From Auanema rhodensis (lineage: Eukaryota > Animalia > Nematoda), in the NCBI GenBank assembly GCA_964057225.1, contig OZ059899.1, forward strand, positions 11,284,001 to 11,348,000: DNA of 64,000 bases. Direction: 5' to 3'. Below are positions 19,986 through 64,000 of the stretch, piece after piece. How positions within the stretch are numbered: position 1 is the first letter of the stretch; every line of letters starts with the position of its first letter. The notes under the pieces are model-generated. The model was not told the origin of the DNA. It did no database searches and saw only the letters and a program-made list of their open reading frames with translations. The position numbers and the translations under genes were made by a program.

Positions 19986-19990
<5 letters not shown>

Positions 19991-20057: not shown

Positions 20058-20060
<3 letters not shown>

Positions 20061-28903: not shown

Positions 28904-29261
28904 CGTTCCATTCGGATGATCAATGCATTACATTCATATGACGAAGCTGTAGCAGGCGGGTTAGAGTCAGAGAATGCGAGACTGAGAGAAGACGACCCGC
29001 CCTTTTCCATATTACAACACTTCAGCTTTGCCTCAGGGACGATCATGGATGGTTGGTCGTTCTCTCTCTGTTCTCTATTAGTTTAACCTTTACTTAGTTA
29101 TATGTATCTTATTGTAATCACGTAGATATAATAAACCAATCTTTCTCGAGTCTTATGTTTATCCTTATGCTCCATGTTTAACCGCTACATCTGGAATACT
29201 ACCACGCTCATCTTGTAGACTCGATTGGTCTGTAAGATCGACGCGGGAGCATAACGGAACG
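28904..29261 (+). repeat. Element B 5' LTR (358 bp)
   Basis: CGTTCC...GGAACG. Differs from the 3' LTR by 4 substitutions and one 3-bp indel. Confidence 0.95.
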
Positions 29262-29274
29262 TGGAGGTTCCACC
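29262..29274 (+). promoter_or_regulatory. Element B primer-binding site (tRNA-Gln)
   Basis: TGGAGGTTCCACC directly after the LTR. Confidence 0.88.
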
Positions 29275-29366
29275 TCGAACTTATCACAATTTTTTTTTCT
29301 TCCTTCTCTCTAATGTTTGTGTTGTTAATTTATTTTCAAATCTCTTTCATCTCTCTTTTTCTCATA

Positions 29367-30030
29367 CCATCTACTCTATGTCTTAACACAATACGGAGGG
29401 GCCAACAACGTTAAATGGGAACAGAGGCAAGGAATCCTTTTTTTTTTTTTAAAGAAGGATTATACGTTTCGAGATTATTATTTTCCCGTTTGTTCACAAA
29501 AATTCTTTCGTCTGAACCTTTAAATTTCGTATCCTTGCTTATAACATCTGAAATGCTCTGTTACCCAACCTTGAAGCTTGATGAGGGCTTTAGGCTGAAT
29601 TAGTGAACAAATTCACCTAAAGTAATTGTTATTTTGTATTTCCCACGCCTTCTCCTTTTTAAGGATTAATTTTGGCTTGAAGGAAAGAATAACTTCGGTT
29701 ATATCTTTATATTTCGTGGATGAAGTTTGTTTTGCGATCAGGACTATTTTATTTTGCGTTACGATTTCGTTCAGACAAATTTTGCTTCTAACATCCTAAA
29801 TTTATAATCAGTACGCATGAAAAAAATTACACGGGAAACCTCACCAAAAAGGGAGGATTGTTAAATTATAGATCGCTATAGTCCGAAAAATCCTGTTGAA
29901 AAATGTTATCTCGAATTTGAATCATGATTAACACAGGTCGTGTTGGCTAAAGCATATCGGTTTGGATTTTCTCCCCTTACTGAATGTCACTTTCCTCATA
30001 CCGTTATTGTTGTTCAGAAGCATAAGACTC
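29367..30030 (+). ncRNA. Conserved structured cis-RNA in the element B leader (predicted, several pseudoknots)
   Basis: Non-coding blocks conserved with element D are pairwise complementary; some changes are compensatory. Confidence 0.7.
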
Positions 30031-30774
30031 ACGCATTGAACCTTATTCCAACTTTAATACTAGTTCTTGTAATATTTAGCCATTTAACTCTGCTTTTATT
30101 TCAAAATTCGATTTCTGATCACGAAATACCTACATTCATCATTGCGAAACGCTCTTTTGTAAAACTAATATTGCGAATCCCATGACTTTTGTTACAACGA
30201 AACATGCGAGCTACACCAAACGTATTTGAAAACCAGATTGTAAAGAAACAAAAAAATTATTTTTGGTCACAAAAGAGAAATTGGTGCACATTTATTGTTA
30301 AACTGCTCTTTTATCAAAAGCATGTTACGAATTACACCATAAGTTTTGTTGCAAGATGACACACCACATGGCCGAGAAACTAGTGTAACAAAACATAAGT
30401 TTAGTCAGCATGAGGAAAATGGTTGCATACAAATCAGTAAAATGTGCTGTAATTGAACGAATATTACGAATTACACTAAACGTTTTCGTAAAATAACAGC
30501 TTGGTCACCCCAGATGTTTTGTGAATCAGATTTTCAACTACAGAGAAAATACGGAGAGCACCAGAGTCCCGATATCACACAGTAGAAGGCGGATCCATCG
30601 CCATTGGCCAAGGCATCGACCTCATTCTCACAAGTCGATACGACACCGGTCGCTCTCCAAAGCCTTTCTCATTTTGCCTACATCCTCATCCTTATTCACC
30701 GCATTCTTTAACGTCTCAACATCCCACACGTTACCAAGCACTCAAGGTTTTTTCAAACCAAGAGTTCTAGCAAG

Positions 30775-32406
30775 GTGGCTAAGAGATTCCATTCAGCCGT
30801 ACCTATAAGTACGCATTTCGATTCCCAAGACTCAGCTCCCTTTACCAGAAGTCGAGCTCAAGCTCAAGACGTCGCTATATTAGAAGAGGAGCAGAAAGTC
30901 GACAAGAAGCCGGATAATTTCCTTATTCCTACTACTGATTCTGTCTCACCTACTGAACAACTAGGCAACCCGGACTACGTACCTACTATAGAAGAAGAGC
31001 TATCAATCATTGTTAAGGAACAAACACCGATCACTCCTAAAAAGGTACGCTCCTCTAATTCTAATAAAAATAAGAAAAATCAAAACATCAGCTACGCTTC
31101 TCTCTCTCTCTCATTAACCGAACCAACCGATTCCCCTTTACTTTCAAAAACTTCTAGCGCGGGTGGGCTTAGTTCTCTTAGAAACATTGTTACTGATCTT
31201 TTTAACCTTTCGCCTAAAGATAAAACTTTCAACACCAAGCGCAAAAGCAGATATTCATCAGTTCCCAATTATAATATCTCACCAATTCAACCACCTGCGC
31301 CAAATACCAGTATTCATCAAACTTCTACTCCCATCTTAACAACAACAGACTCACTTCCTAAGGCACCCAATAGACCTATTCCATCCACGCAAACAACCCC
31401 TATTTTGGAGACCCCACCAATAACAGGTAGAACGATCAAAATACCATCTACCCGTACGAATAACATCATGACGGAAGCTGTTTTCTCATTACCTGGGGCA
31501 GGGAAAACAACAATCGCGCAAGCCTTACTTTCGCCTTACTGTCCAACTTACGACGGCAGTCGTAACTTCCGTGATTTTACGGGTAAATTCAACTTGTTTG
31601 CTAATGCCATTGGCCTTGTTATCCCTGAAAGGTTAGCACTTCTTCCTTTGCTTCTCAAAAATGAAGCAGCAGAAGAAGCTTACAGACAATTTCCTGAACA
31701 ACTTAAAACAACTGGTTCGTGGAATGATCTGATTAGAGCACTAACATCGAAGCTCTGCCCTGAATATAACCAAGACCCTGCACTTATTAACCTTCAAAAC
31801 ACCACGCAAGGGGAATTGACAATTGATGCATACGCCCAAGCATTAAGAACAATGGCATTGAGTGCATTTGCATCTGATGACCCACATAAAGATCAAATAC
31901 TGAGATCAACATTCCTCAGAGGACTTAAAAATTCTCTAAAACCAGCTGTGATCCGAGCAAAGCCAAAATCCTTCACAGAAGCGAATGAAGCAGCTCGCTG
32001 GGAGGAATCGATAGTGAACCAAACAACAGACACGCAATCGATGTTGGTCAACGCTGTGAACAAAGCACTAGCATCCTTTGCGCGTAATGATGAGAGACGA
32101 GATAGCCAAACATTTAATCGCAATTATCAACGCGATAACCAAATGATAAGAAACAATCAAAATTATCAAAATAATCAAAATTATCAAAAAAATAAAAACT
32201 TTTCTAATTTCAATAATAATCGAAACCGTTACGGTTCTTTCGCTAATAATAATCGCCGTACAAATTATAACGAACAAGATAATAGGCAATCGAGTTCTGA
32301 CGTGCAGTCACCGAAGGATGTTCTTTCCCGCTGGATCAAGATCGGATCAACGAAGTTGAAGATTATGAAACAGTATTGCTTCACATTTGTCCATATACTT
32401 TCCTAA
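30775..32406 (+). CDS. gag: Gag of element B: S/T/P-rich N-extension, capsid-like domain, N/R-rich tail. GTG start as annotated; frame conserved from 30712; C-terminus scrambled by a deletion.
   Basis: Retrotransposon-gag-like motifs (PTYDGS; LQNTTQGELTIDAYAQALR; FLRGLK). Confidence 0.88.
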   Translation: MAKRFHSAVPISTHFDSQDSAPFTRSRAQAQDVAILEEEQKVDKKPDNFLIPTTDSVSPTEQLGNPDYVPTIEEELSIIVKEQTPITPKKVRSSNSNKNKKNQNISYASLSLSLTEPTDSPLLSKTSSAGGLSSLRNIVTDLFNLSPKDKTFNTKRKSRYSSVPNYNISPIQPPAPNTSIHQTSTPILTTTDSLPKAPNRPIPSTQTTPILETPPITGRTIKIPSTRTNNIMTEAVFSLPGAGKTTIAQALLSPYCPTYDGSRNFRDFTGKFNLFANAIGLVIPERLALLPLLLKNEAAEEAYRQFPEQLKTTGSWNDLIRALTSKLCPEYNQDPALINLQNTTQGELTIDAYAQALRTMALSAFASDDPHKDQILRSTFLRGLKNSLKPAVIRAKPKSFTEANEAARWEESIVNQTTDTQSMLVNAVNKALASFARNDERRDSQTFNRNYQRDNQMIRNNQNYQNNQNYQKNKNFSNFNNNRNRYGSFANNNRRTNYNEQDNRQSSSDVQSPKDVLSRWIKIGSTKLKIMKQYCFTFVHILS

Positions 32407-35400
32407 GACCATTAATGAGTAATCCCGGTATTACTTCAATTATTCCTATAATCAAAGGAAGACGTTTAGTAGATCCAACATACTCTCTAAAGGCATGGAT
32501 AACATCACATAAAGAAAAATTCGAATTTTTCTTCAGAATTCAAATAAATGAACATTCTGTTCGACATTTTCTCAAGCAATACGATTTCAGTGATAAAGAA
32601 GAAGCTCTGCTATATTACATAGCACAAAGAGAATTAGCCATTACTACAAAGGCAGCAATATCATACTTAACATCTGAACAGCTTCTCGAACAAATATCAG
32701 ATCGTTTGACAGTAATCGAATTCGATGAAATCATAAGGAAGAAAGAAGGTTCATATCGCGAACGAATTGAAAGCATAGCTCTCAATTTAACCAATACACC
32801 AGTTATAATTGAAGAAGGATTGACAGTTCCATCACGACAAGAAGTCCTACAAACGTTCATACAAATGCCACCAATAAGGAAACGTATACTAACTGACGAG
32901 GAAGAGAAGAAAAGCGAATTCATTAAGGCAACGATCAATTTACTAAGAGAACTAAAAACCCTCACAACAGTACGATGGAATAAAACTGCAGCATTTATTG
33001 ATGACAGAAAATTTATAAAATTGCCAGCATCACGACAATTCATGCCAAAAACAGATAAACTATTTTATGACAGGAAGAATAATTATGGAATACCGATCGG
33101 TCCACACCCTAAGCTGATCAAGCCCAGCAATCTTTCAAAGAAATTATTATTGGAAATATTTTTACCCCTGCTCAATAATGTAAAAACACCTTATACATCG
33201 AGTAGGATAACACAAGAACAACTTCAAATCTTAATGGCAGAGGAAAATGAAACAAATATTCGGCAAATCGCAACGCGGACATCCAGCGTCGCGTCAGGCG
33301 GCGCGGCTAGCGGCGCGGTTGTGACACCAGTCCAACCTTTGATCGAACAGAAGGGAACAATCCAATCAGTTACCACAATACAGCCGCAAATAACGAACAA
33401 TCCTCACACAAATGCAACAACCACCACAAGAGCACCATCATGGAGGCAACAGCCATCAACAACGGCGCCTCACACGACCGCTGCGACAACAGCACGCACA
33501 ACAACATCAACCGCTCGTTCGCCAACAACAACAAGAAGCTATGCCATATACAAAGACGCACAGATTCCAAAAATACAAGAGACAACCGAAGCCTCTCCAA
33601 CATTGATTCGAAAAAACCGAGCTTCCTCAACACCATCAGTAGAAACCTCAAATTTAGTGGAAGCAAATGCGAGATACATAGCAACGAAAATTGACTCGGT
33701 ACAAGAGTTTCGTCAAAATATATCGAACAAAATAGCCCAAGATAATTTACAGTATGCTACTACAATGATCCAAGAGGAATTGCAGAAACATTTTGAAGAA
33801 TCATACGAATCGATTTGCGAGATACAAAATCGGTATCTGGAATTATGGAAATCAATTCTACAAATTGAACCAACAATCGCAATGCGAACAATACTGGGAA
33901 GAGAAGATATAGCCGCACGGTTTGTAGGCAATGAAATTTTGCATATACATGTATGCCCTACAGTGCTAGAGAAAACCATTTATCACAATCACACCGTAAA
34001 TGGCACATGCTATCTCGAAACCCCAGTCTGGACACAAGACGGACAGTTACTGTTTGCAGCACCCGGATCCAAGGATCTTTTACCTCATGGTAAAGAAAGA
34101 AGCTGTGATCACGTACCAACAGATATCTGGTCTAGCGAAGGTGAATGGAAAGGAATTAATGGGACTGCAGACGTCAATCTTGTATCAATGTGGGACGGAC
34201 TTCATCACGAAAAAATAACACCATTAAAATTCACCGGAGCTCACTTATACACTAATTTATCGTCTCGTGTATACTCAATGACCACAGCCATAGCTTACGG
34301 TGCGAGTTTAGCATCGATTCGTCAGAATCACGTTCTTCACACAATTCACAATGATCCAAAGATATCAGCTACATTCAGTGTACTAAAGAAAAGTAGCGAC
34401 TACATATCGAAAGCTCAAGAATTCACCAAGAGCACATGGAAGTCATTCATCGATACAATTGCAGGAACGATTGAGCGAACACTAATAACGATCGGTGCAA
34501 TTACATTATTCACCATCATACTCTTTGTGATAGGTTTCATTGTAAAGATCTATTTCTTCAAACCAGTAGGCATACCAGTTATGCATATTGCACTCAAAGA
34601 TCACGACAGTGATCTACCAACATACGAAGAAACTTTGGAATTAGTTAGTCATCCGGACCAACCGATTCCAAGACACATAATGAAACAATACTATCCATCA
34701 ATGCTCACATTCATACCAATCGCACTACCATTAGTTTGCTCGATTTCCAAAAAGAAAGATCAAGCGCTACCACTTCTATGGATGACTGTTAACGATAGAC
34801 TGATCCTAACTTTATGGGACTCAGGTTCGTCCGTCAGTTACATAAGAATATCGACACTACACTACTTAGCTTTGAATGACTTTGTTAAGAAGAATACATT
34901 AAGAGCAACAACAGCGAACGGATCAGAATTTGTATTCATTGGTACTATCGACTTAACCGTCGAAATAGCCGGTTACGAAATCGACCATACATTCTTCATA
35001 TCAGACGACAAAGACTGTCCATCGCCAGCGTTGATTGGATTAGATTTCATGAAAACACTTGACTGTCAAAACATTGGCATGAAACTAAGACCATACAAAA
35101 GAACACTGGAAATTGGAAATCATGTAGTACCTTTGGCTAGCGGAATTAACGGGGATATTAACAGGATATCAAAAACTGTTAATTTGATAACCTTGGAACC
35201 GCGGAGTCTACTTCCACGACAAGTTTTTAATTTCCAAGTTCAATTAGAGAACCCAATCGGAGAAGACTTAATCGCTATGATTAAACCAAACGACAATACT
35301 CCTCTCTCACCTCGATACGACACAGCATTTCGCGATGTTAACTCCATCAATATCCAATTCCGGAACAATTCTAAAGAATTCATAGAAATACCGGCCGGCA

Positions 35401-37934
35401 CTGTGATTGCAGAAGCCGAAATAGGATCTATACCGGACTATGAAATCTTCTCAACAGAACAACAGTACGACTATATTCCACCAGAAGCAGACTGGGAAGG
35501 CAAATTACCTCACTTCCCTGGTGATTTCATGAAAGAACTTGACCTAAAAGAGGCTGATCTTACGCAACGACAAAAAGACGAACTACGAAACATCATTCGT
35601 CAACGTAAGAAGGCATTCCTCAATGAAGATAAAAAGATAGGATTGTTCAAAGGACCAGTAGAACACAAGATACCACTACGAACGGATATGGATATGCCAA
35701 AGCCACGAATTTCACGTATACCTCTCGGGAGACAAGAAGAGGTAGAAAGACAAGTCCAAGAAATGCTCGAGCAAGGGATAATAGAACGATCGACATCTTT
35801 GTTCAACAGCCCTGTCGTTCTCGTTAAGAAAAAAGACGAAACATTCCGTTTCGTTACGGATTTCCGAGCCTTAAATAACGTTACAAGAAAACAAACATAT
35901 GTGATTCCTAACATCTCTGATATCATTGACTTAGCGGCTGGATCACAATACTTTTCTAATTTTGATCTTGTTTCTGGCTTTTTCCAAATACCATTATTGA
36001 AGAAGGATAGACCACTTACATCCTTTACCACCAATAGTGGGACTTATCAATACAGGAGAATGCCTATGGGATTATGTGGTGCGCCACATACCTTTCAAAC
36101 AGCCGTGAGATATCTCCAAAGTAAATGTAAATGCCGACTATTTGTCTATTTGGACGATTTACTAGTCATATCAGACAGCGCAGAACAACACCTCGAAGAC
36201 ATCAAAGAAGTATTACTCGCTGTAGAAAGACTAGGATTTAAGATTAAACTCAAGAAATGTTCATTTGCAAGACCAGAAGTGAAATTTCTCGGACTCATTG
36301 TCGGAAGAGACGGAGTTAAGCCCGATCAACAGAAAGTTTCCGCCATCCGCGATTACCCTGCTCCTCAAACACCCACAGGAGTAAGAGCATTCTTAGGAAT
36401 GGTCGGATTCTTTAGAAAATTTATTAAAGATTTTGCACATATAGCAAGTCCGCTGTATGACCTTACTAAGCTAGACGCAGACTTCAATTGGACTAGCGAA
36501 TGTCAACATTCACTAGATAAGCTAAAGGAACGACTAATCGAAGCACCGGTACTGAAACCACCACGATCAGACCGAACTTTCATCATTGAAAGTGATGGCA
36601 GCAACATCGCCATAGGCGCAGTATTACTGCAGCCCGAAGATCCAAACGAACCATTCAAGAACTTACATCCAATTGCTTTCGCAAGTAGGAAATTAGTAAA
36701 AGCAGAACGTAACTATGCTCCCATAGAGATAGAAGCCTTAGGCTTAGTTTACGCTCTAGCACAGTTTCGAACATACATACTTGGATCACATTCAATTTGC
36801 ATCACCGATCATCGCCCATTGACAAGCTTACTAACTAGAAGAGACCTATTTGGAAGACTAGCAAAGTTCCAATTGGTCATACAGGAATACGATATTGAGA
36901 TCAAATATCGAGAAGGCAGATTAAACAAAGTCTGTGACGCACTCTCTAGATACATTGGAGATGAAGCTAACGATCCAAAGACGTCGAACAAGAAACAAAA
37001 GACGAATTCGAAAGAGAAAATTGAGACACAACAAGTAAATGTTGTGAAGTTACCAGAATTCAGCTCAATCCAACAAAATACTCCTTGGATCAAGAGAACA
37101 ATAGCTGAGATTGAATACAGAACGAAGAAAAATATGATTCAAAATGATCGTTATTGTGTTATAAACAACTTACTCTACACAAAACCAAGCGTCAAAAGAC
37201 CTCATCCAGCGTTAATATTGCCATCGGATAGTGATATAATTAACAAAATCATTGAAGAATTTCATGAAGACCCAACAATCGGGGCGCATCAAGGAATCAA
37301 CAAAACAAAAGAAGCCATATTACGAAGATTTTCCTGGACTAACATGCAGAACGACATAGCAAAATACGTAAAACAGTGCATCAAATGTGCGCAACGAAAG
37401 AAAGATCCTCATGCTATGACCGTACAACCGATGGGTCAATTTAACATACCATCAAAACCATTTGAGAGAATACATATGGATATCATGGGACCATTCCCAA
37501 CATCAAAAAGGAACAACAGCTATGTCCTCACAATACAAGAATCTTTCTCCAAATGGGCTACAACTATCGCCATACCAACAATTGTTAGTGAAGTTGTCAT
37601 TGATAGATTCCTCAGAAACTTTGTATATGTCTATGGACCACCGAATCGCTTAATAACAGACCGCGGTTCCAACTTCCTATCAAGGAAATTTGAAGACATG
37701 TGCGAAAAACTTGGTATCAAACATGAATCAACACTCCCACATCAGAAGAATTCCAATGGACAAGTAGAAAGACTTCATAGAACGTTAGAAGAAGGACTCA
37801 CACATTATCTCAACGAAGATGTCACTGATTGGGACATGTTTTTGCCAAAAATTACCTTTGCATTGAACACCACAACGCATGCAACCACAGGAATATCACC
37901 ATACGTTGTACTATTCGGAAAGAAAGCCGTTTGA
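32376..37934 (+). CDS. pol: Env remnant (gB-like core plus TM) fused to Pol (protease, RT, RNase H, integrase)
   Basis: LWDSGS protease; FDLVSGFFQ and YLDD RT; ESDGS RNase H; HHCC and D,D(35)E integrase (MDIMGP, TDRG, VERL). Confidence 0.95.
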   Translation: MLHICPYTFLRPLMSNPGITSIIPIIKGRRLVDPTYSLKAWITSHKEKFEFFFRIQINEHSVRHFLKQYDFSDKEEALLYYIAQRELAITTKAAISYLTSEQLLEQISDRLTVIEFDEIIRKKEGSYRERIESIALNLTNTPVIIEEGLTVPSRQEVLQTFIQMPPIRKRILTDEEEKKSEFIKATINLLRELKTLTTVRWNKTAAFIDDRKFIKLPASRQFMPKTDKLFYDRKNNYGIPIGPHPKLIKPSNLSKKLLLEIFLPLLNNVKTPYTSSRITQEQLQILMAEENETNIRQIATRTSSVASGGAASGAVVTPVQPLIEQKGTIQSVTTIQPQITNNPHTNATTTTRAPSWRQQPSTTAPHTTAATTARTTTSTARSPTTTRSYAIYKDAQIPKIQETTEASPTLIRKNRASSTPSVETSNLVEANARYIATKIDSVQEFRQNISNKIAQDNLQYATTMIQEELQKHFEESYESICEIQNRYLELWKSILQIEPTIAMRTILGREDIAARFVGNEILHIHVCPTVLEKTIYHNHTVNGTCYLETPVWTQDGQLLFAAPGSKDLLPHGKERSCDHVPTDIWSSEGEWKGINGTADVNLVSMWDGLHHEKITPLKFTGAHLYTNLSSRVYSMTTAIAYGASLASIRQNHVLHTIHNDPKISATFSVLKKSSDYISKAQEFTKSTWKSFIDTIAGTIERTLITIGAITLFTIILFVIGFIVKIYFFKPVGIPVMHIALKDHDSDLPTYEETLELVSHPDQPIPRHIMKQYYPSMLTFIPIALPLVCSISKKKDQALPLLWMTVNDRLILTLWDSGSSVSYIRISTLHYLALNDFVKKNTLRATTANGSEFVFIGTIDLTVEIAGYEIDHTFFISDDKDCPSPALIGLDFMKTLDCQNIGMKLRPYKRTLEIGNHVVPLASGINGDINRISKTVNLITLEPRSLLPRQVFNFQVQLENPIGEDLIAMIKPNDNTPLSPRYDTAFRDVNSINIQFRNNSKEFIEIPAGTVIAEAEIGSIPDYEIFSTEQQYDYIPPEADWEGKLPHFPGDFMKELDLKEADLTQRQKDELRNIIRQRKKAFLNEDKKIGLFKGPVEHKIPLRTDMDMPKPRISRIPLGRQEEVERQVQEMLEQGIIERSTSLFNSPVVLVKKKDETFRFVTDFRALNNVTRKQTYVIPNISDIIDLAAGSQYFSNFDLVSGFFQIPLLKKDRPLTSFTTNSGTYQYRRMPMGLCGAPHTFQTAVRYLQSKCKCRLFVYLDDLLVISDSAEQHLEDIKEVLLAVERLGFKIKLKKCSFARPEVKFLGLIVGRDGVKPDQQKVSAIRDYPAPQTPTGVRAFLGMVGFFRKFIKDFAHIASPLYDLTKLDADFNWTSECQHSLDKLKERLIEAPVLKPPRSDRTFIIESDGSNIAIGAVLLQPEDPNEPFKNLHPIAFASRKLVKAERNYAPIEIEALGLVYALAQFRTYILGSHSICITDHRPLTSLLTRRDLFGRLAKFQLVIQEYDIEIKYREGRLNKVCDALSRYIGDEANDPKTSNKKQKTNSKEKIETQQVNVVKLPEFSSIQQNTPWIKRTIAEIEYRTKKNMIQNDRYCVINNLLYTKPSVKRPHPALILPSDSDIINKIIEEFHEDPTIGAHQGINKTKEAILRRFSWTNMQNDIAKYVKQCIKCAQRKKDPHAMTVQPMGQFNIPSKPFERIHMDIMGPFPTSKRNNSYVLTIQESFSKWATTIAIPTIVSEVVIDRFLRNFVYVYGPPNRLITDRGSNFLSRKFEDMCEKLGIKHESTLPHQKNSNGQVERLHRTLEEGLTHYLNEDVTDWDMFLPKITFALNTTTHATTGISPYVVLFGKKAV

Positions 37935-38464
37935 GATTGGATAAAGATTTATACCCCGAAACAACTGAACCAAAGGAAATTTCAAAGGAGGTTGAAAATA
38001 TTGAAAAAATCCGAAGCAAACAGAAAACAATCATTCAAGAAAATTTGGAAAAGCATCAAGAATTAGCAAAAAAGAAACATGATGCTCGATTACGCACTCA
38101 CGAAAGAGATATACAAGAAGGAGACTGCGTTATGTTAGCTGTGAAAATGCACAAGCCAGGACAAAAGCTTCGGAAAGCTTATGATGGACCATTTGAAGTT
38201 ATTAATGTGAAGGGAAACATGGTTCAAATCAAAAACCTTTTCGGAAAGATCGAAGACGTTCACAAGGACAATCTCAAATTATTTAATCGAGAAACAGATG
38301 ACGGAATCGCACATAAGAACAGTACACGTACAGACAGCTCAGACGATGACAGCGATATTGAAATCATAGAGGTTATCAACGGAAACAACAACGATGAAGA
38401 CTCTTATGACGAACCAGAAGACCTTTCGGATACAAATTGGCTACCATCAAGAAAAAACCATTAA
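37925..38464 (+). CDS. Integrase C-terminus (GPY/F motif), separated by a 1-bp frameshift
   Basis: YDGPFEV. Contiguous with IN in element D (GKESRMRLD). Confidence 0.85.
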   Translation, partial: SRLRLDKDLYPETTEPKEISKEVENIEKIRSKQKTIIQENLEKHQELAKKKHDARLRTHERDIQEGDCVMLAVKMHKPGQKLRKAYDGPFEVINVKGNMVQIKNLFGKIEDVHKDNLKLFNRETDDGIAHKNSTRTDSSDDDSDIEIIEVINGNNNDEDSYDEPEDLSDTNWLPSRKNH

Positions 38465-39091
38465 CTCATGAGATTTTATTGTAAATTGTTTTGTAATAAC
38501 TTTCTTTAAAGTAATACTAGAACACAAATTTTGTAACGAGTCCTCTAAAACAAGTCACTCTTAAGTCAAAAAGTAAACTAGAGCATAATGAACACGGGTC
38601 GAACGAACCTTCCTAATTTCAACTAACTTCCCCATACTAGATGAGATGAAAAATGAAAGACATAGTTTGCACTTGAGTAATCAATGACTCAATTTGGAAG
38701 TTATTTGGTATTACGCAAAACTTTTCTTTTTTTTCTAAACTCACACAAATTGAAACAAACAACCGAGCTCTAGCAAAAAAATAGTTAACTTTTTATCTAC
38801 ACTTGTTGGAGCGTTATGCTTAAAAACTTTTTTTTTTTATTATTTTATAAGCACGTTCGCCAATAAAACATAGTCTAGTATTCGTTAAAGAGGGTTAAAA
38901 CTTTCATAATTTGGTTAAAAATTTTTTAATTCTTTTCAGATACTGATGTTTTATATTGTATTATGTTCATATTATAAGAATTTTACGTAAAATATTGTAT
39001 TGTAACATGTACTTTAATACACACATTAACCCTTCTGCTACAGTTAATCAAGTCAAAACTTTTGATTGTCGCGAGGACGCGACATAAACTC

Positions 39092-39102
39092 GAAAAAGGG
39101 CA
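39092..39102 (+). promoter_or_regulatory. Element B polypurine tract
   Basis: GAAAAAGGGCA just before the 3' LTR. Confidence 0.75.
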
Positions 39103-39463
39103 CGTTCCATTCGGATGATCAATGCATTACATTAATATGACGAAGCTGTAGCAGGCGGGTTAGAGTCAGAGAATGCGAGACTGAGAGAAGACGACCCGCC
39201 CTCCTTTTCCATATTACAACACTTAAGCTTTGCCTCAGGGACGATCATGGATGGTTGGTCGTTCTCTCTCTGTTCTCTATTAGTTTAACCTTTACTTAGT
39301 TATATGTATCTTATTGTAATCACGTAGATATAATAAACCAATCTTTCTCGAGTCTTATGTTTATCCTTATGCTCCATGTTTAACCGCTACATCTGGAATA
39401 CTACCACGCTCATCTTGTAGACTCCATTGGTTTGTAAGATCGACGCGGGAGCATAACGGAACG
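39103..39463 (+). repeat. Element B 3' LTR (361 bp)
   Basis: Direct repeat of 28904-29261. Confidence 0.95.
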
Positions 39464-41420: not shown

Positions 41421-41433
41421 GTAGTTGTTCGTC

Positions 41434-48046: not shown

Positions 48047-48059
48047 GGACGATGCACCA
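48047..48059 (-). promoter_or_regulatory. Element C primer-binding site (tRNA-Gly-like)
   Basis: TGGTGCATCG 1 nt after the LTR, complementary to the tRNA-Gly(GCC) end CGATGCA-CCA. Confidence 0.75.
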
Positions 48060-48060
48060 A

Positions 48061-52919: not shown

Positions 52920-53622
52920 ATGAGTCTTATGCTTCAAAACAACAATAACGGTATGAGGAAGGTGACATATAGTAAGGGGAGAAAATCCAAACTGATATGC
53001 TTAAGCCAACACGACCTGATCACTAATAATAATTCAGTTCGTAAAATTGTACAGGATTTTTCGGACTATAGCGATCTTAAAATTCACTTCTCATAATATT
53101 CCTCCCATTTAGGTAAGGTTTCCCGTGTAAATTCAATGCGTTATCAAAATATTTTTGGATGTTAATGGCAAAAAGTTGTCTGAACAGAAATGTAACGCAA
53201 AATAAAATAGTCCTGATCGCAAAATATGAAATAATCTCAATTTGGTGCGCAAAATTGTTTCATCCACAAAAATAAAGAAATAACCGTGGCTATTCTTTCC
53301 TCGAAGCCAAAATCAATCCTTAAAAGGAGAAAATGTGGGCATAAATCTCAATAAAAATTATCCTTGGGTGAATTTGTTCACTAATTCATCCTAGGGTCCT
53401 CAAAAAAATGCTTCGAGTTCGGGTAACAGAGTATTCGATGTTAACAGCAAGGATATAAAAATTGTTGGGTTCAGACAGACAGAAAATTGTGAACAAACGG
53501 GAAATATAACTTCAGTTTCAAAAAATATAAAATATCCATCTCCAAAAGGAGTGGTCCTTGCATCTGTACCCTTTTAAACGTTGTTGGCCCCACCGTATTG
53601 TGTTAAGACATGGAGTAGATGG
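52920..53622 (-). ncRNA. Element D homologue of the structured leader RNA
   Basis: Same complementary blocks, in the same order, as 29367-30030. Confidence 0.7.
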
Positions 53623-53714
53623 TTTAGAGATATAAGAGAATTCAGATTCAATGAAATATTGAAAATAACGAAATATAAGAGAAAATAGTCAAGAAATCAA
53701 GATAAAATGTTCGA

Positions 53715-53727
53715 GGTGGAACCTCCA
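53715..53727 (-). promoter_or_regulatory. Element D primer-binding site (tRNA-Gln)
   Basis: TGGAGGTTCCACC after the LTR. Confidence 0.88.
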
Positions 53728-54064
53728 CGTTCCGTTATGCTCTCACGTCGATCCTATAGACCAATAAAGCCTACAAGATGAGTGTGATAGTATTCCAGAT
53801 GTAGCGGTAGATAAAGAGCATAATGGATAAACATAAGACTCGAGAAAGAAAGGTTTATTATGTCTACATGATTACAACAAGTTATATAAGTCTACATAAA
53901 GATATAAAGTGAAAGAGAGCTAAGAAAGGAAGACCAACCATCCATAGTCATTCCATAAGGCAAAGCTGAAGTCTGTGTTCCATATGAAGGGCGTGTTGTC
54001 CTCTCTCAGCCTCATGTCGTCTGATTCTAACCCGCCTGCTACGTATTGATTTCCGAATGGAACG
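53728..54064 (-). repeat. Element D central LTR (337 bp)
   Basis: CGTTCCATTCGG...ACGGAACG; homologous to the B LTRs. Confidence 0.92.
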
Positions 54065-54761: not shown

Positions 54762-56645
54762 TCATCGTCTTCTTCTTGGTGGTAGCCAATTTTGGTCCGA
54801 TGGGTCTTCTGGTTCTGTTTCTTCAGTAGAGTCATAGTTATCGTTACCATTTATGACTTTTATGATCTCAATATCGCTGTCGTCGTCCGTGTCATAAGTC
54901 GTTGTATTTGATCGCGTGTTTTGAGCGATTGTATGGTCCATTTTTCGTTCAAAAAGTTTGAGATTGTCTTTGTGTACGTCTTGAATTTTTCCAAATGGAT
55001 TCTTGAGTTGTACCATGTTTCCTTCAACGTTGATGACTTCAAATGGTCCATCATATGATTTGCGAAGCTTTTGACCTGGTTTATGCGCTTTAATTGCTAA
55101 CATAACTTGGTCTCCTTTTCGGATATCTCTTTCTTCTATTCGTTGTCGTCCATCATGTTTTCTCTTCGCGGTTTTTTGATGTTTTGCAAGATTTTCTTGA
55201 ATGATGGTTCTTCTTTCTCCTCTGATATATTCGGTATTCTCAATTTCTTCCAAGATCTCTGGTTGTAATGTCTCGGGGAATAATTCTTTGTCTAATCTCA
55301 TACGACTTTCTTTTCCAAATAATGCTATGCATGGAGAGATTCCTGTGGTTGTGTGTGTTATTGTATTTAACGCAAAAGTAATTTTTGGTAAATACATGTC
55401 CCAATCAGTTACGTCTTCGTTGAGATAGTGTGTTAATCCTTCTTCTAGCGTTCTGTGTAGTCTTTCGACTTGTCCATTGGAGTTTTTCTGATGAGGGAGT
55501 GTTGGCTCGTGTTTAATGCCAAGTTTTTCACACATTTCTTCAAATTTCTTTGATACAAAATTAGATCCACGATCGGTTATTAAACGATTTGGTGGTCCAA
55601 AAATATATACGAAATTCCTGAGGAATCTATCAATGATGACATCGGTGACAATTGTTGGTATAGCGATGGTTGTCGCCCATTTGGAGAATGAATCTTGTAT
55701 TGTTAGGACATAATTGTTGTTTCTTTTTGAAATAGGGAATGGTCCCATAATATCCATATGTATTCTCTCAAATGGTTTTGATGGTATTTCAAATTGACCC
55801 ATAGGCTGAACGGTCATAGCGTGAGGATCTTTCTTCCTTTGTGCGCATTTAACGCATTGTTTCACAAAAATTGCTATGTCCGTTTGCATATTTGTCCAGC
55901 AGAATCTTCGTAGTATGGCTTCTTTAGTTTTGTTAATTCCTTGATGTGCTCCAATTGCTGGGTCTTCGTGAAATTCTTCGATAATCTTGTTGATAAGTTC
56001 GCTTTCCCTTGGTAAAATCAAAGCTGGGTGTGGTCGTTTTCTGCTTGGTTTTGTGTATAACATGTTGTCAATAACACAATAACGATCATTAGAAAGCATG
56101 TTCTTTTTCGCTCTGTATTCTATTTCGGCGATAGTTCTCTTTATCCAAGGTGTATCCTCTTGAATTGCTCTAATGTCAGGTACATTAACGAAATTAATTT
56201 GAGCTTTCGGAATTTCTTTTGTTTTCTTTTTCTTTTCCGGTTTAGGATCATTTGCTTCATCTCCAATGTATCGTGAGAGAGCATCACAGACTTTGTTTAG
56301 TCTGCCTTCTCGGTATCTTATCTCGATATCGTATTCCTGTATGACTAATTGAAATTTTGCTAGTCTTCCAAAAAGGTCTCTACGAGTCAATAAGCTTGTT
56401 AATGGTCGATGGTCTGTGATACAGATTGTATGTGATCCAAGTATATATGTTCGAAACTGAGCTAAAGCGTATACGAGTCCTAACGCTTCTATTTCAATAG
56501 GAGCATAGTTACGTTCCGCTTTTACAAGTTTACGGCTTGCAAATGCAATTGGATGTAAGTTTTTGAGTGGTTCATTGGGATCTTCAGGTTGTAATAACAC
56601 TGCTCCCACTGCGATATTACTACCGTCACTTTCTATAATGAACAT
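54762..56645 (-). pseudogene. pol: Element D RNase H-integrase segment of pol
   Basis: Closely similar to element B RH-IN, including GPF. Cut off from RT by frameshifts. Confidence 0.92.
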
Positions 56646-59033
56646 ACGGTCTGATCTTGGTGGTTTTAAGACCGGTGCATCAATTTTCTTTTTAGTGTAT
56701 CAACAGCTTGTTGACTTTTGTCATTCCATTGAAATTTCACATCAAGTTTTGTATGGTCGTATAAAGAGCTTGCGATGTGTGCAAAATCTTTAATAAATTT
56801 CCGAAAGAATCCTACCATTCCCAAAAATGCTCTTACTCCTGTAGGTGACTTTGGAGCAGGATAGTCTTGAATGACGGAGACTTTCTGTGGATCTGGTTTG
56901 ACCCCATCTCTTCCGACAATTAAACCAAGAAATTTTACTTCAGGTCTTGCAAAAGCGCATTTCTTGAGTTTAATTTACATGCCTAATTTCTTTACTTCTC
57001 TGAGAATCTCAGCTATATCGTCAAGATGTTGTTCTGCAGTGTCTGATATAACAAGTAAATCATCCAAATAAACAAAGAGTCGGCATTTACATCGGCTTTG
57101 AAGGTATCGTACTGCTGTTTGAAAGGTATGTGACCACATAACCCCATAGGCATCCTTCTATATTGATAAGTACCGGTGTTTGTTGTAAATGCTGTTAATG
57201 GTCGATCTGATTTTTTTAATGCTATTTGGAAGAATCCGGATACTAAATCAAAGTTAGAAAAATATTGTGATCCGGCTGCCATATCGACAATGTCAGAGAT
57301 GTTAGGTATGATGTATGTTTGCTTGCGAGTGACGTTATTTAGAGCACGGAAATCGGTTACGAAACGGAATGTTTCATCTTTCTTTTCTAAAACTAAACTA
57401 AAACTACAGGACTATTGAAAAGAGATGTGGATGGTTCAATTATATTTTGCTTCAGCATCTCCTGTACCTGTCTTTCGACTTCTTCTTGTTTGCCTATAGG
57501 GATACGCGTTATACGCGGTCTAGGCATGTCCATATCTGTTCTTAGAGGTATTGAATGCTCTACAGGTCCTTTAAATAGTCCTATTTGTTTATCCTCATTT
57601 AAAAATGCATCTCTATTACGTAGAATACAAAGCTGAAGAAGATCTTTTTGTTCTTTAGTTAGGTCGGCGTCTTTTAAATCAAGATCGTTCATAAAGTCCT
57701 GAGGAAAATGAGGTAATTTATTTTCCCAATCCGCTTCGGGTGGTATATAGTCTGGATTGTGTTCGGTCGTAAAGATCTCGTATTGTGGCAGTACGCCTAT
57801 TTTTGCTTTGTCAATAATGTTTCCGGGTGATAGATCTATAGGATGATCAGTGTTGTTTTTGAATGTCATGGTAATTGAATTGACGTCTCGAAATGCTGTT
57901 TCGTAGGTGGTAGATATCGTCTTTTCTTCATCGGGTTGTAGCACGGCGACTTCTTTGTGTGATATGGGTTCAGCTAACCTTACTGGTATTCTACAGGTCT
58001 GATGAGGAAAGATACATTGTGGATTTAAATTTATCAAATTAATGACAAATGATGTTTTTCTAATATTCCCGTTATTTCCATTGGCTAACGGTACTACCCG
58101 GTTTCCGATTTCTAACGTTTGTTTGAATGGTCGAAGTTTCATACCGATATTTTTACGATCGAGTGTTTTCATAAAATCTAATCCAATTATTGCTGGTGAT
58201 GGACAGTCTTCATCTCTTGAAATGAAGAATGTATGATCTATTTCATATCCAGCAATTTCTACGGTTAAATCAATTGTTCCAAGAAATCGAAATGCTGATC
58301 CGTTTGCTGTCGTTGCAACTGATTTATCCTTTTTTACAAAATCATTCAAAGTTAAGTAATGTAATGTCGAGAGTCTGATATAACTAATCGATGATCCTGA
58401 ATCCCAAAGAGTTAGGATTAGTCTATCGTTAACAGTCATCAATAGCAGTGGTAGAGTTTGGTCTTTGCGATTGGAAACTGAACAAACTATGGGCATAGCT
58501 AGTGGAACTAAAGTGAGAAACGATGGATAGTACTGTTTCATTATATTCTTTGGTATTGGCTGATCAGGTTGACTTACTAGCTCTAATGTTTCTTCATATG
58601 TGGGAAGATCGTTGGTTTGATCTCGAAGTTCGATATGCATGACTTGCATGCCTATTGGTTTGAAGAAATATATTTTCGCAACGAAGGCTAGTACGATCAG
58701 TATAACTACAATAATTGTAATTGCTCCAATAGTGATGAGTGTTCGTTCAATCGTTCCTGCTATTGTATCGACAAAAGAATTCCATGTACTTTTGGTGAAT
58801 TCATTGGCTTTGGAGATGTAATCACTACTTTTCTTCAATATGCTGAATGCTGATGATATTTTTGGATCATGATGAATTGTGTGAAGCACGTGATTTTGAC
58901 GAATCGATGCTAAACTAGCACCATAAGCAATGGCTGTTGTCATTGAGTACACTCGAGATGATAAGTTGGTGTATAAGTGTGCTCCGGTGAATTTTGATGG
59001 CGTGATCTTTTCATGATGAAGTCCGTCCCACAT
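56646..59033 (-). pseudogene. pol: Element D env TM, protease and RT, with several indels
   Basis: LWDSGS protease. RT is broken near 57393, 57130, 56990 and 56700-56760. Confidence 0.9.
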
Positions 59034-59090
59034 GGATATGAGACTGACGTCTACAGTACCATTAATTCCTTTCCATTCACCGTCTGTTGA

Positions 59091-62000
59091 TCATACGTCT
59101 GTCGGTACGTGATCACAGTTAATTTCTTTACCATGAGGTAATAGGTCTTTCGATCCTGGTGCGGCAAACAGTAATTGTCCTTCTTGTGTTAATACTGGAG
59201 TTTCGAGATAACATGTGCCATTCACAGTGTGATTGTGATATATAGTCCTTTGTAATACTACCGGGCAAACATGTATATGTAATATCTCGCTGCCTACAAA
59301 TCTTGCGGCTATATCTTCTCTTCCCAGTATTGTACGCATAGCTATTGTTGGTTCAATTTGTAAAATTGATCTCCATAATTCAAGATACCTATTTTGGATC
59401 TCACATATTGATTCGTATGACTCTTTAAAATGTTTCTGCAGTTCTTCTTGAATCATAGTTGTAGCATATTGCAAATGATCTTGGGCAATTCTGCTTGTTA
59501 TGTTTTGGCGAAACTGTTGTTCGGAGTCAATTTTTGTGGCAATGTATTGAGCATTAGCCTGTACAGACTCTATATCGGTGGCTGTAGGCGTTGATGATGC
59601 TCTATGTTTGCGAATCAAAGATATTGGTGTATATGTTGTTTCTTCCATTATTGGAATTTGTTGATCTTGATGAACAGCGTAGAGAATAGTAGTTGGCGGC
59701 GCGCGGGTCGATATTGTTGCGCGCGCGGTTGTCGTTGCGGTTGTATGGCGCGCCGTTGTTTCGGGCTGGGCCATCGATGAAGGCGCGCGCGCGGTAGTTG
59801 CTGCGGCTGCCCGAGGGCTTGTAGATGTTTGCGGCAGTATTGCGGGATCTGTTGTGATCAGCGCCTCACGATCGATTATAGGGAGGGCTGCCATCTCGGC
59901 CGCGCCGCCTGCCGCGTTGCTTGGCGCACGCGTCGTGGTTTGCAACGATTTAAGTTGGATTTTCTCTGTCATTAATCTTTTTAACTGTTCTGATGATATT
60001 CTACTAGATGTATTAGGCAAAGTATTATCTTTTAGTAGTGGTAAAAATATTTCCAATAATAAGTCCTTAGAGATGTTGTTGGGCTCTATGAGCTTGGGAT
60101 GTGGTCCAATTGGTATTCCAAAATTATTCTTGATGTCATAGAACAATTTATCAGTATCAAGTACAAACATTCGTGAAGATGGAAGGTTTATAAATTTTAT
60201 GTCATTAATATCAGCTGCTGTTTTATTTCTTCTAAGCGTAACGAGAGTTTTTAGCTCATGTACAAGGTCAATTGTATCTTTTATAAATTTGCTGTTTCTT
60301 TCTTCTTGATCAGTTAATAATTGTTTCCTTATTGGTGGCATTTTTACGAATGCTTTTAATATTTCTTGTCTTGATGGAACTGTTAATTTGTCTTCAATTA
60401 TAACTGGTGTATTGGCTAAATCAAGAGCAATAGTTTCAGCACGCTCTCGATAAGTGCCTTCTTTTGTACGAATTAACCGATCAAATTCAATAACGGTCAA
60501 CCGATCTGATATTTGTTGAAGAAGTTGCCTGGATGTTAAATAAGATATTCCAGCTTTAGTAGCTAAAGCTAATTCTCTTTGAGCAACATATTGTAAAATG
60601 GCTTCGTCTTTATCACGGAAATCATATTGTTTGAGAAAATGTCTTGAAGATTTCTCATAAATTTGAATTTTAAAGAAAAATTCAAAATTTTCACGATGGG
60701 CTATTATCCATTCTTTCAAGGAATATGTAGGGTCTACCATACGTCTTCCTTTAATTAGAGGAATAATTTGTGTAATTCCTGGATTACTCATAAGTGGTCT
60801 TAAAAATGGATATGGGCAAATTCGAAGCGTGTACGTTTCAAAATCTTCAACATCATTTATTCTATCCTGATCGAATGGGAATGAGCATTTTGTAGAAGTT
60901 GCGCGTTTTGGTCTTTTGAACGGCAATTTCTTAAATTCTCGTTCAATTAGGAGTGTGATATTGTTATCATTAGGATATTTGGGGAATGTTATATAATTTC
61001 CTGATGTTGTATGGAATGCTGGTTGTCTAAAGCAGGATGCGATTGATTTTGGTGTTATTTTACTCGAAAGGATAAGCGCTGATTGTGCACTTGGAATCAA
61101 AATAGTTTCTTCGCTTATTATAGCATCGTAGTAATGCATATCGATATAATTACAACGGGAATCCGATGTTTGGGGATCCCATATAATTATTGATGTATTT
61201 GATTTGCAATTACCATGATGAGCACTACAACCTTCAGTGTTTAGTATTAAATTGGATAATATTGTATCATCGGGCATGCGGGTCATGACTCCGCGCTCTA
61301 GTACTAAACGCGGCCGCTCCTCGCACTCGTCGCGGCTAAACGCGCGCGCCGGATCATAGGAGGGCTCTGGGGTTGCTTGTGCTATACTATCGATTTTCTC
61401 CAGCTCCATGTTATTCCATTTGCGATCGCGAATCGCCTGCCTGCACTCGTGCGCCGCTATAGGCTGCACCCTATCGATTGTTCTGTTTGTGTCGCGGAGG
61501 AATAACAAATCGCGTACACACAGCTTGTGTACTTCCTTCGAGCAGCGCCACGCGTCCCACTCGTGTGCCGTGTGGTTTCGCGTGTATAGATGGATTTGTG
61601 TACGTAGCACATGATTTGTTTCTGTTAATTTACATTTCTTTACTACTGGTGGAACTAATAAGGCTCCTCCAGTTGCTTTTGTGCAAATTTGATATGAAGT
61701 TACACATGGCAGGAGAATTGCTACTGTGATTGCCATTACAACCGTTAGTGATAACGGTGAAAGGATCACAGAGTTAATTCGTGGTGTGCTTCTATCTCGT
61801 CCTCTTGATTGATCTCTTTGATTGTTAAAATGGACTCTTCTTTGTCCGTTATGTTCATTAGTCCTTCCTCTTCTATTATTGTTTGAAGGATTAAAATTGT
61901 TTGAATGCCAGTTGTTATTAAATTGTCCCGAATTTCGTTCATAATTATTGTTACGGCGATAATTAGCAAAAGAGCCGTTACGATTTTGGTTGTTATTATA

Positions 62001-63438
62001 TTTTGAAAAGTTTTTATTTTTCTGATAATTTTGATAATTATGATAATTTTTATTGTTTTGGTTATCACGTGGATAATTACGGTCGAAATTTCGGTTATCT
62101 CGTCTCTCGTTTGTGCGCGCGAAAGGAGCTAGTGCTTTGTTTACAGCATTGACTAGCATGGACTGCGTGTCTGTTGTCTGGTTCATTATCGATTCTTCCC
62201 AGCGAGCGGCCTCAATCGCATCCGTGAAGGATTTTGGCTTCGCTCGAATCACAGCTGGTTTCAGAGTATTTTTCAGTCCTCTGAGGAAAGTTGATCTTAA
62301 TATGTGATCTTTGTGAGGGTCATCCGTGGCAAAAGCGCTTAGTGCAATCGTTCTCAGTGATTGAGCGTATGCGTCAATTGTCAGATCCCCTTGGGTTGTG
62401 TTTTGGAGATTGATCAGCGCGGGGTCCTGATTATATTCAGGACAAAGCTTAGATGTTAAAGCTCTTAACAGGTCATTCCATGAACCGGTGGTTTTTAATT
62501 GTTCAGGTACTTGCCTGTACGCTTTTTCCGCTGCTTCGTTTTTAAGAAGCAAAGGTAGAAGGGCTAATCTCTCCGGGATTAACAGACCTACAGCGTTGGC
62601 AAATAGGTTGAATTTAGCCGTGAAATCTCGAAAGTTGCGACTGCCATCATAAGTTGGGTGATAACAAGGCTTGCGCTATGGTAGTTTTCCCTGCCCCAGG
62701 TAAACAAGGTTCAGTTGCCATATTACTTGTACGGGCAGATGGCATTTTTATCACTCTGCCTGTTGTTAATGAGTTCTCAGACACAGGGGTTGTGTGTACT
62801 GAGCGGCTGGGTTGGTTTGGTGCTTTTGAACTTCCTGTTGTTGTATTTGGTAAAATTGGGGTTGAAGTTTGGTTATCAGTAATAGCAAGATGTGTATGTT
62901 CGGGTGGTTGTATGGGAGATAAATTAATGTTTGGAACCGACGAGTATCTATTCGTGTGGCTGGTGTTCAAGTTTCGATCTTTTGGTGAACGATTGAAGAG
63001 ATCAGAAACTATGTTTTTAAAAGTTTGTAAACCGCCTGCACTAGTAGTGGCTACTGAAGGTGAAACTGTTGGTTCAGGGATGGACAGAGAGAGAGATGCG
63101 TCCGATTTGCTTGAGTTTTTATTTTTATTTTTCTTATTTTTATTTGAATTAGAGGAGCGTACCTTTTTAGCAGTAACTGGTGTTTGTTCTTCCACTATGA
63201 TGGATGTTTCTTCTCCTCCTGGTGGTACGTAATCCTCGTCGCTTAATCGTTCAGTAGGTGAATAAGTGCCTGCACGAGGAGTAAAGAATTTGTCGGTTTT
63301 GTGCTCGGCTTTCTGCTCGTCTTCGATTATAGCGATGCTCTGCGCGCGAGCTCGGCTTCTGGTGAGTGGAGCTGAGTCTCGCAGATCAAAATCAGTTCGT
63401 GTACTGAGAGGTACAGCTGATCGGAATCGCTTATCCAC
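59091..63438 (-). pseudogene. Element D gag plus complete gB-like env ectodomain, in frame (small frameshifting deletion near 62655; TGG>TGA at 59091)
   Basis: The 1153-aa ORF runs from capsid through a signal-like hydrophobic segment into a Cys-rich ectodomain. Confidence 0.9.
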
Positions 63439-64000
63439 TTTGGTAGCGCTCTTGGTTTGGAAAAACCTTGAGTGTTTAGTAACGTGGGGGATTTTGAGAC
63501 GTTAATGAGTGTTATGGATAAGGAATTTTGGAAAAGGGGTGAGAAAGCTGTGAGTAACTGGTTTGTATAGTCGGCGTTAAGGAATGAATCTAAGTTGTGG
63601 CCATCAACAGAGATCCGCCTACTACCGTATGAAAATTTGGACTTTGTTCGCTTTCCAATTTAATATTCTTAAATGTATATAATTCAACCAGTTTGTATAT
63701 GTTCAAAAATGTTCAGTGCTCACTTGATTGATGCCTGAGCAATCTCCTTAGTCCTTATTCCCATTTTTTTTTCTTTTTCTGACGATTCTGATCTTCTTGG
63801 ACTCACGAGTGATCGAAAATGCCACGAAAATGGACTTTGGTAAATGTTCAAAGGATTTTAGCGGTTTTCATAATGTACATTCGTAATAGCATTACTCTTT
63901 TAAGGAAGCAATTTGGAAAACGAATGAATACCGTAGTCCCGTCATGATCAGAAATCTAGTTTTAAAATTATGGCTAGGAATAGATGAAGATTACAATAAC

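Follow-up and report, generated by a model that had tools for sequence, protein, structure and literature searches.

The window, by which we mean the whole 64-kb stretch of DNA analyzed here, holds two related LTR elements, copy D on the minus strand and copy B on the plus strand. Copy D reads capsid, Asn/Arg tail, signal-like helix, class III (gB-type) envelope (env), transmembrane (TM) helix, protease, reverse transcriptase (RT), RNase H, and integrase, and is composed of the following features.

62647..63501, minus: gag 5' part, basic low-complexity N-terminal region (ORF list), with a frameshift near 62650 between it and the capsid frame
62166..62561, minus: capsid domain (Retrotrans_gag and Ty3_capsid; Pfam E 2.2e-5 and 4.3e-4)
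61776..62123, minus: Asn/Arg-rich Gag tail (35 N and 20 R in 116 aa)
61695..61769, minus: internal signal-like hydrophobic segment, predicted membrane crossing 1 (hydropathy 2.44), 6 residues ahead of the env N-half
60918..61694, minus: env N-half, Cys-rich and beta-rich, predicted fusion/PH domains (pLDDT mostly 85-98)
60903..60917, minus: KRPKR, canonical furin-type site (sequence motif)
59970..60902, minus: inserted all-helical domain of ~310 aa, with no family or fold match (pLDDT 79, pTM 0.81)
59613..59969, minus: Thr/Ala-rich mucin-like tract, predicted disordered (24 T and 22 A in 121 aa; pLDDT <50)
59601..59612, minus: RKHR, minimal R-x-x-R motif, cleavage uncertain
58752..59600, minus: env C-half, long central helix and gB-like core (profile, model, and fold matches), interrupted by an in-frame stop
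58680..58736, minus: env TM helix, predicted membrane crossing 2 (hydropathy 3.18)
58167..58439, minus: aspartic protease (Pfam gag-asp_proteas E 1.6e-6; DSG motif at 58403)
56700..57500, minus: RT, with three frameshifts near 57390, 57130, and 56680 (tblastn frame changes)
54762..56699, minus: RNase H, integrase (H2C2, rve), and SH3-like end (Pfam)
53728..54064, minus: 3' LTR, 81% like the copy B LTR, with the primer-binding site (PBS) directly after

Copy B represents a sister family about 75% identical to copy D.

28904..39463, plus: whole element (LTRs 98% identical; PBS at 29262-29273)
30712-32406, plus: gag, one frame across the region that is split in copy D (ORF list)
32301-37934, plus: env loop, TM helix, protease, RT, RNase H, and integrase in a single ORF (ORF list and domains)

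Two related LTR elements in a 64-kb window

All of the segments quoted in the initial annotation were found in one copy D frame running from 62675 to 57396 on the minus strand (VILSPLSL at 61769, KRPKR at 60917, RKHR at 59612, SICEIQNR at 59411, and NGTCYL at 59222), and the domain order and Pfam matches agreed with its placement of env between gag and protease. Membrane helices were called by hydropathy, in place of SignalP or DeepTMHMM; only two exceeded the threshold in this frame, one on either side of env. The Asn/Arg-rich tail of Gag is likely its RNA-binding part. The 5' LTR of copy D lies beyond the window. The 3' LTR and PBS are followed by a second leader and gag start, forming a shared-LTR tandem, and within the window positions 51855-52891 are 99.8% identical to 62964-64000.

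Copy B has two LTRs, a PBS, and a purine-rich tract. A deletion of about 1.05 kb removed its signal segment and the N-half of env. The uninterrupted env-TM-protease fusion ascribed to this copy was borne out, the frame staying open from the env loop through most of integrase; the gag-env join is not shown by copy B. The LTR ends are CG..CG, not TG..CA, and the PBS corresponds, in reverse complement, to the Gln 12-mer reported for Caenorhabditis latens and Caenorhabditis tropicalis elements. The surroundings form a repeat array holding several insertions, and a BEL/Pao element with a phlebovirus G2 env lies nearby at 40154-48508 (Pfam). A literature search on tRNA-array insertion found nothing relevant.

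The single reading frame first proposed for the window copies did not hold. In copy D, the ectodomain is interrupted by an in-frame stop at 59091-59093, upstream of the TM helix, and four frameshifts lie near 62650, 57390, 57130, and 56680; copy B lacks the gag-env join. The 64-kb window contains no intact copy, and neither a membrane-anchored env nor an RT can be made from copy D. At all five breaks, contigs of public DNA runs read differently, and at the stop the contigs of 4/4 runs differ within the codon. A programmed frameshift at 62650 was rejected, as copy B has one frame there and the contigs of two runs carry an indel at the place; in a third run, the piece over this position has an equally large gap. 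In one run, guessed to be RNA, coverage fell mainly on LTR, integrase, and leader parts, with env hardly covered. Uninterrupted ORFs were found in proteins of relatives and not in the decayed copies D and B, which bears on the intactness of these copies, not on the family.

The assignment of pol to the Ty3/gypsy type was upheld by Pfam matches to RVT_1, RT_RNaseH, Integrase_H2C2, rve, and Ty3_capsid in a protease-RT-RNase H-integrase layout. In an RT tree that contained no named Ty3/gypsy reference and excluded the broken RT of copy D, copy B grouped with rows having env before pol, apart from BEL/Pao-type rows (100/100). A BEL/Pao origin was rejected on this separation and on the lack, in both D and B, of Peptidase_A17/DUF1759, which the neighbor at 40154-48508 has.

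A gB-type envelope between gag and protease

The likeness of env to herpesvirus gB, proposed from its residue pattern, proved to be above chance in Pfam, family-profile, and Foldseek searches. Env scored 42.1 bits against PF24664 (cut-off 27) and E 1.2e-8 against PF00606, the latter at 35 bits, below the curated cut-off of 43. Among the 58 PDB matches of the env family profile, 54 were named gB or its homologues, the best being human cytomegalovirus gB (E 3e-19), and the N-half matched viral glycoprotein structures by family profile (E 2e-5). When the fold of the ectodomain was compared with gB, as the initial annotation had proposed, Foldseek returned class III matches: rhabdo-like G (2.2e-13), gammaherpesvirus gB (1.9e-11), Midway nyavirus G (3.7e-11), and herpes simplex virus (HSV) gB (2.9e-10). 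The env core was predicted with high confidence around the insert. The domain arrangement of the model, a monomer with pTM 0.51, is not established, because the TM-scores of these matches are low (0.15-0.17 by query) and the rmsd is ~26 Å. These results support env as a class III, gB-type envelope and predicted fusogen.

Like herpesvirus gB and the G proteins of nyami-, chu-, and rhabdo-like viruses, which it matches in sequence profile and fold, env has a basic cleavage site upstream of a long central helix; identity in the fold matches is 9-15%. Unlike them, it has a cleavage loop that contains a folded insert of 310 aa, and it is encoded within a retroelement polyprotein. A search for longer homologues with copy D env found none among 7208 candidates, which is weak evidence. 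Between D and B, dN/dS was 0.07 for the env C-half, 0.08 for protease, 0.06 for integrase, 0.135 for the helical loop domain, and 0.49 for the Thr/Ala tract, ratios that are rough because dS exceeds 1 in most domains. Env is under purifying selection between the two copies.

Relatives were compared as protein sequences, and eukaryotic gene models among them could conceal predicted introns. Capsid, env, protease, RT, and integrase occur in one protein in 14/152 relatives, and capsid, env, and protease in one chain in 28; the same order was seen in 7/21 further RT-integrase neighbors, whose sources include Caenorhabditis and Ancylostoma. Each of the 28 capsid-env-protease chains has a TM helix after env, and 19 have a hydrophobic segment before it, hydropathy results that support the predicted two-crossing topology; the other 9, which score <1.8 for the first helix, count against it. 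Auanema and Caenorhabditis supply the closest named relatives, which, together with the neighboring BEL/Pao element and its phlebovirus G2 env, suggest a nematode host. In Auanema, protein P0001, a sequence of 1666 aa from a 5045-base contig, spans the capsid end, signal, env, TM helix, and protease and continues into RT; it shows 47-50% identity over gag, env, and protease. P0011, P0154, P0156, P0157, P0163, and a second Auanema protein, P0158, are 45-59% identical over RT-integrase. The same domain order is found in P0001, P0011, P0154, P0156, P0157, and P0163 (Caenorhabditis, Auanema), and the Cys pattern and furin site of env are conserved in Auanema.

The initial annotation had offered this architecture as new, adding that an earlier description would reduce its novelty. 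Such a description exists: GAG-ENV-POL Ty3/gypsy elements with gB-type env have been reported from nematodes, from bryozoans, and from flatworms (Chary and Hayashi, eLife 2026, PMC13524379). Supplement 1 of that article lists 36 nematode elements, and ENV-POL matches are counted in two Auanema assemblies. The order of the genes is genuine, yet it was known before. These "ancient errantiviruses" share with copy D a Ty3/gypsy pol, a gB-type env between gag and pol, and an ectodomain between two hydrophobic helices, and the Caenorhabditis members share the Gln PBS. The article also cites non-canonical nematode ERVs in which env and pol have swapped places (Sacco et al. 2022, J Gen Virol 103:1739). 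Our literature search for the gag-env-pol order returned PMC13524379 only, and a search on polyprotein topology returned nothing relevant. Two BEL/Pao elements are also comparable: Tas, from Ascaris, has a gB-like class III env, and Atlas virus, from hookworm, encodes env within a single 2828-residue polyprotein (PMC9094657). Both differ from copy D in their BEL/Pao RT, and Atlas virus also in having env after pol and a phlebovirus-like class II fusogen. The elements of Sacco and colleagues reportedly have gag, env, pro, and pol in one continuous ORF and an env resembling nyamivirus G, which fits the Foldseek match to Midway nyavirus G.

The cleavage loop

The env loop of copy D is 430 residues long, consisting of the all-helical domain and then the Thr/Ala tract, and ranks within the top 4 in length among 104 loops measured; lengths across relatives range from about 20 to 510 residues. 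Of the two furin-like sites said to bracket the insert, KRPKR is canonical and RKHR is a weak, minimal R-x-x-R. A basic site stands at the loop start in 28/35 long-loop proteins, and a terminal R-x-x-R in 10/35, against a chance rate of 0.28, so bracketing by two conserved sites was rejected as a family trait.

The helical domain is confidently predicted to fold on its own. It had no Pfam match, nothing under E 0.05 against PDB sequences, and nothing at E<=0.001 in Foldseek; VIA matches (best Z 3.5, death domains included) were treated as noise, and Atlas gave leads only at 0.75-0.85, with unnamed clusters. Relatives were absent from the metagenome and viral contigs searched, and no internal repeat was detected. 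These blank searches do not prove a new fold. The domain is present whole in P0001; loops in Caenorhabditis measure 90-281 aa, and some relatives there share only its first 55-80 residues. Literature searches on the env loop found nothing to the point, and the 430-residue loop with its helical domain, which appears undescribed, may be a new part.

Polyprotein topology and attachment

We consider it very probable that copy D is a decayed LTR element of the Ty3/gypsy group that follows the published gag-env-protease-pol order and likely belongs to a rhabditid nematode, and that intact members likely make one polyprotein predicted to cross the endoplasmic reticulum (ER) membrane twice. The signal-like helix after Gag would direct env into the ER lumen, with Gag released by signal peptidase. 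The second helix would halt transfer, leaving protease, RT, and integrase in the cytosol to be cut free by the element's protease. Furin would cut KRPKR, with the two env halves remaining joined as a trimeric fusogen, and the helical domain and Thr-rich tract may lie on the spike exterior as an attachment module or shield. Enveloped particles could then pass from cell to cell, for example, from soma to germ line.

Alternatively, splicing or recoding of one genomic ORF might give separate Gag-Pol and Env, making the double-crossing polyprotein minor or absent. A 1:1:1 ratio of Gag, Env, and Pol would indeed be unusual for retroelements. We nevertheless regard separate products as unlikely: env lacks its own start and has instead an internal signal-like helix that continues the Gag frame, both helices hold their position in most relatives, and no env-skipping joint occurs in the DNA contigs examined, a comparison of DNA that is not a test of RNA. 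Env might instead have ceased to be a fusogen in this lineage, the large insert marking a change of role, such as a secreted or shielding product, in an element that moves only within cells. The exceptional loop length and the loss of a working env in both window copies are in line with this idea, which is made improbable by an env core conserved between D and B to the same degree as protease and integrase, by the Cys pattern and furin site kept in Auanema, and by the confident fold around the insert. That env reached its place in a gypsy copy by a chance nested insertion or by chimeric assembly, as the repeat array with its insertions might suggest, is refuted, with a residual probability close to nil: single contigs in public runs span the gag-env join (61531-62444) and env-TM-protease-RT (56679-60129), and copy B and many species have the same order.

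The layout of the element adds little, since the gene order is already catalogued. The double-crossing topology is easily tested, and the main text of PMC13524379 discusses neither it nor a loop domain. That article leaves open how gB-carrying errantiviruses enter cells, since herpesvirus gB needs partner glycoproteins. We tentatively propose, as a rather doubtful extension, that the furin loop of nematode gB-type envelopes is a swappable cassette into which this lineage loaded a conserved domain, all helical and with an undescribed fold, carried on a mucin-like stalk, as a receptor-binding or host-modulating module. The conserved, separately folding loop domain is a candidate for the missing attachment function of these errantiviruses; if so, it would be a built-in counterpart of the separate herpesvirus proteins gD and gH/gL.

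Organization and reading frame of copies D and B

Copy D, the Ty3/gypsy LTR element under study, was delimited by its ORFs, Pfam matches, and LTR and was read alongside copy B, an element of a sister family:

~63500 to the 3′ LTR at 53728-54064, minus strand: copy D
28904-39463, plus strand: copy B, with LTRs 98% identical to each other and about 75% identity to copy D

The initial annotation had described gag, an envelope (env), protease, and pol in a single reading frame. In copy D, the frame from 62675 to 57396 encodes a capsid with a tail rich in Asn and Arg, followed by a hydrophobic segment. Env comes next, as a Cys-rich region, the KRPKR motif, a loop of 430 residues, RKHR, and the gB-like core, and after it a second hydrophobic helix and a protease with a DSG motif. 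RT, RNase H, and integrase lie downstream of the protease. All of the motifs quoted in that annotation are present in copy D where it placed them. The frame itself is broken by an in-frame stop at 59091-59093, within the ectodomain and upstream of the TM helix, and by four frameshifts near 62650, 57390, 57130, and 56680. In copy B, the env-TM-PR fusion is uninterrupted, as proposed, within a single ORF that runs from the env loop through most of integrase, but a stretch of about 1.05 kb that would encode the signal segment and N-half of env is missing. Neither copy, therefore, shows the full single frame.

Judged from contigs of DNA runs, the stop and frameshifts are likely particular to copy D. 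Contigs of all four runs aligned over 58900-61900 differ within the stop codon; env is free of indels in them, and 25 to 34 of 3001 places are unlike copy D. In all three runs compared over the whole element, indels fall on or next to the frameshift sites, although at 62650 the indel is listed directly in two runs and the third has only a gap in its piece.

A search with env returned 264 proteins, of which the best 150 were combined with other homology matches into a set of 152. At the level of protein sequence, the complete series capsid, env, protease, RT, integrase occurs on a single chain in 14 of these 152 relatives, and capsid-env-protease in 28; env is followed by protease in 55, and pol lies ahead of env in 13. 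The RT-integrase region of copy B gave 23 matches, 21 of them new, and the full order was found in 7 of the 21 (Caenorhabditis auriculariae, C. nigoni, C. remanei, C. brenneri [two], Ancylostoma duodenale, and one other). An RT tree with 27 rows, which had no named gypsy reference and omitted the broken RT of copy D, placed copy B together with the 21 other rows in which env precedes pol, separated (100/100) from the remaining 5, among which is the BEL/Pao RT of the window itself. To judge from the nearest named relatives, the host is probably a rhabditid nematode.

Class and predicted topology of the envelope

The proposal of a gB-like class III envelope was borne out by several comparisons. 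Copy D env matched Pfam Monjiviricetes_fusion (42.1 bits; cut-off, 27) and, under its cut-off, Glycoprotein_B (E, 1.2e-8). When a 78-sequence family profile was compared with structures, herpes gB matched with a best E of 3e-19, and four entries named "Glycoprotein," which we take to be rabies G, matched through the env N-half (E, about 2e-5 to 6e-5). When the ectodomain was modeled with AlphaFold, X standing in for the stop, the mean pLDDT was 74.6 and the pTM 0.51; the N-half, central helix, and core were predicted confidently. Foldseek placed herpes gB at the top among PDB entries (E, 2.9e-10) and rhabdo-like G, gammaherpes gB, and nyavirus G at the top among viral models. The TM-scores are low, so the match is one of local folds and the domain arrangement of the model is provisional. 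On these profiles and this model, the copy D envelope is class III.

Only two helices in the copy D frame exceed the hydropathy threshold, and they flank env on either side. The second is present in all 28 capsid-env-protease relatives; the first scores at least 1.8 in 19 of the 28, mostly at most 12 residues from the env start. This placement fits the two-crossing topology proposed initially, in which Gag and Pol would be cytosolic and env luminal; signal peptidase, furin, and the protease of the element would free the parts through cleavages that we infer. Splicing or recoding may instead yield the products. The closest env relative among the matches listed, P0001 from Auanema sp. JU1783, has little room for introns, since its 1666 residues lie on a 5045-base contig. 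Nematode elements were reportedly described with a single ORF by Sacco et al. in 2022.

The env cytosolic tail (58446-58679) has an LPTY motif in copies D and B and PPSY in P0001, and PSAP or YPxL-type motifs occur in the tails of 4 of the 28 relatives. From their sequence, these are possible budding signals.

Genomic setting

Tandemly arrayed tRNA-Ile genes make up the window, broken up by LTR elements that sit within or adjoin the array:

1-51843: 665-bp tandem repeat, a tRNA-Ile(AAT) gene array (42 called by ARAGORN, about 99% identical)
16890-21084: element of 4.2 kb with two ORFs, flanked by identical LTRs of 409 bp and an apparent target duplication of 4 bp
28904-29261 and 39103-39463: copy B LTRs, starting CGTTCC and ending GGAACG, as does the copy D 3′ LTR (53728-54064)
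40154-48508: BEL/Pao element whose phlebovirus G2-type env lies 3′ of pol and has one frame break; its LTRs are 99.6% identical
51847-54064: truncated second unit, for which the copy D 3′ LTR doubles as the 5′ LTR

The LTR ends of copies B and D form perfect short inverted ends, in contrast to the usual TG..CA. At the insertion site of copy B, there is no target duplication and about 100 bp of the array unit has been lost. The 4.2-kb element, whose LTR likewise starts CGTTCC and whose two ORFs have no Pfam match, is possibly a very young non-autonomous partner. The BEL/Pao element is Atlas/Cer-like. In the second unit, 1037 bp are 99.8% identical to the copy D 5′ region, reflecting either a recent tandem duplication or an assembly duplication.

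The cleavage loop and the published group

Loop length was taken from 104 of 175 proteins, those in which both env halves were present and the ends were reliable. The loop between the halves has a median length of 67 residues; it reaches at least 150 residues in 35 and at least 400 in 4, including copy D. Furin-like sites had been proposed to bracket the insert. Both are present in copy D, and a basic site opens 28 of the 35 long loops, but R-x-x-R closes only 10 of the 35, the chance rate (0.28); copy D, copy B, and P0001 each have it. A Thr/Ser-rich tract occurs in 22 of the 35. P0002, P0003, P0022, and other relatives carry unrelated inserts of 300 to 500 residues at the same loop, often with a Thr/Ser-rich end.

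The first approximately 310 residues of the copy D loop are under purifying selection (dN/dS, 0.135; the env core has 0.07 and the Thr-rich tract 0.49, with dS near saturation). Modeled alone from a 20-sequence alignment, the helical part (59970-60902) is predicted to be compact (pLDDT, 79; pTM, 0.81). This domain had no match in Pfam, PDB sequences, or Foldseek, and its best Z against 48,161 chains was 3.5. Its profile matches 18 proteins besides copies D and B, all of which came in via env or pol queries, so that occurrence beyond such elements is poorly sampled. We found no account of it in the literature searched, which covered parts of PMC13524379.

Chary and Hayashi (PMC13524379) assign to errantiviruses of Nematoda, Bryozoa, and Platyhelminthes only gB-type env, in the order GAG-ENV-POL, with ectodomains that have a signal peptide or TM on one side and a TM on the other, and credit the nematode elements to Sacco et al. 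2022. Supplement 1 lists 36 nematode elements, among which two Caenorhabditis rows share the Gln primer 12-mer of copies B and D, and supplement 6 counts ENV-POL matches in two Auanema assemblies. PMC9094657 describes Tas env as gB-like and Atlas virus as a single polyprotein; passages of bioRxiv 10.64898/2026.03.22.711591 gave nothing relevant. The gag-env-pol order put forward as novel is thus already published (PMC13524379), while the initial observation was mostly right and its interpretation right in kind. Copy D is a decayed new member of this published group, and the part meriting modest follow-up is the helical domain of its cleavage loop, for which no match was found.
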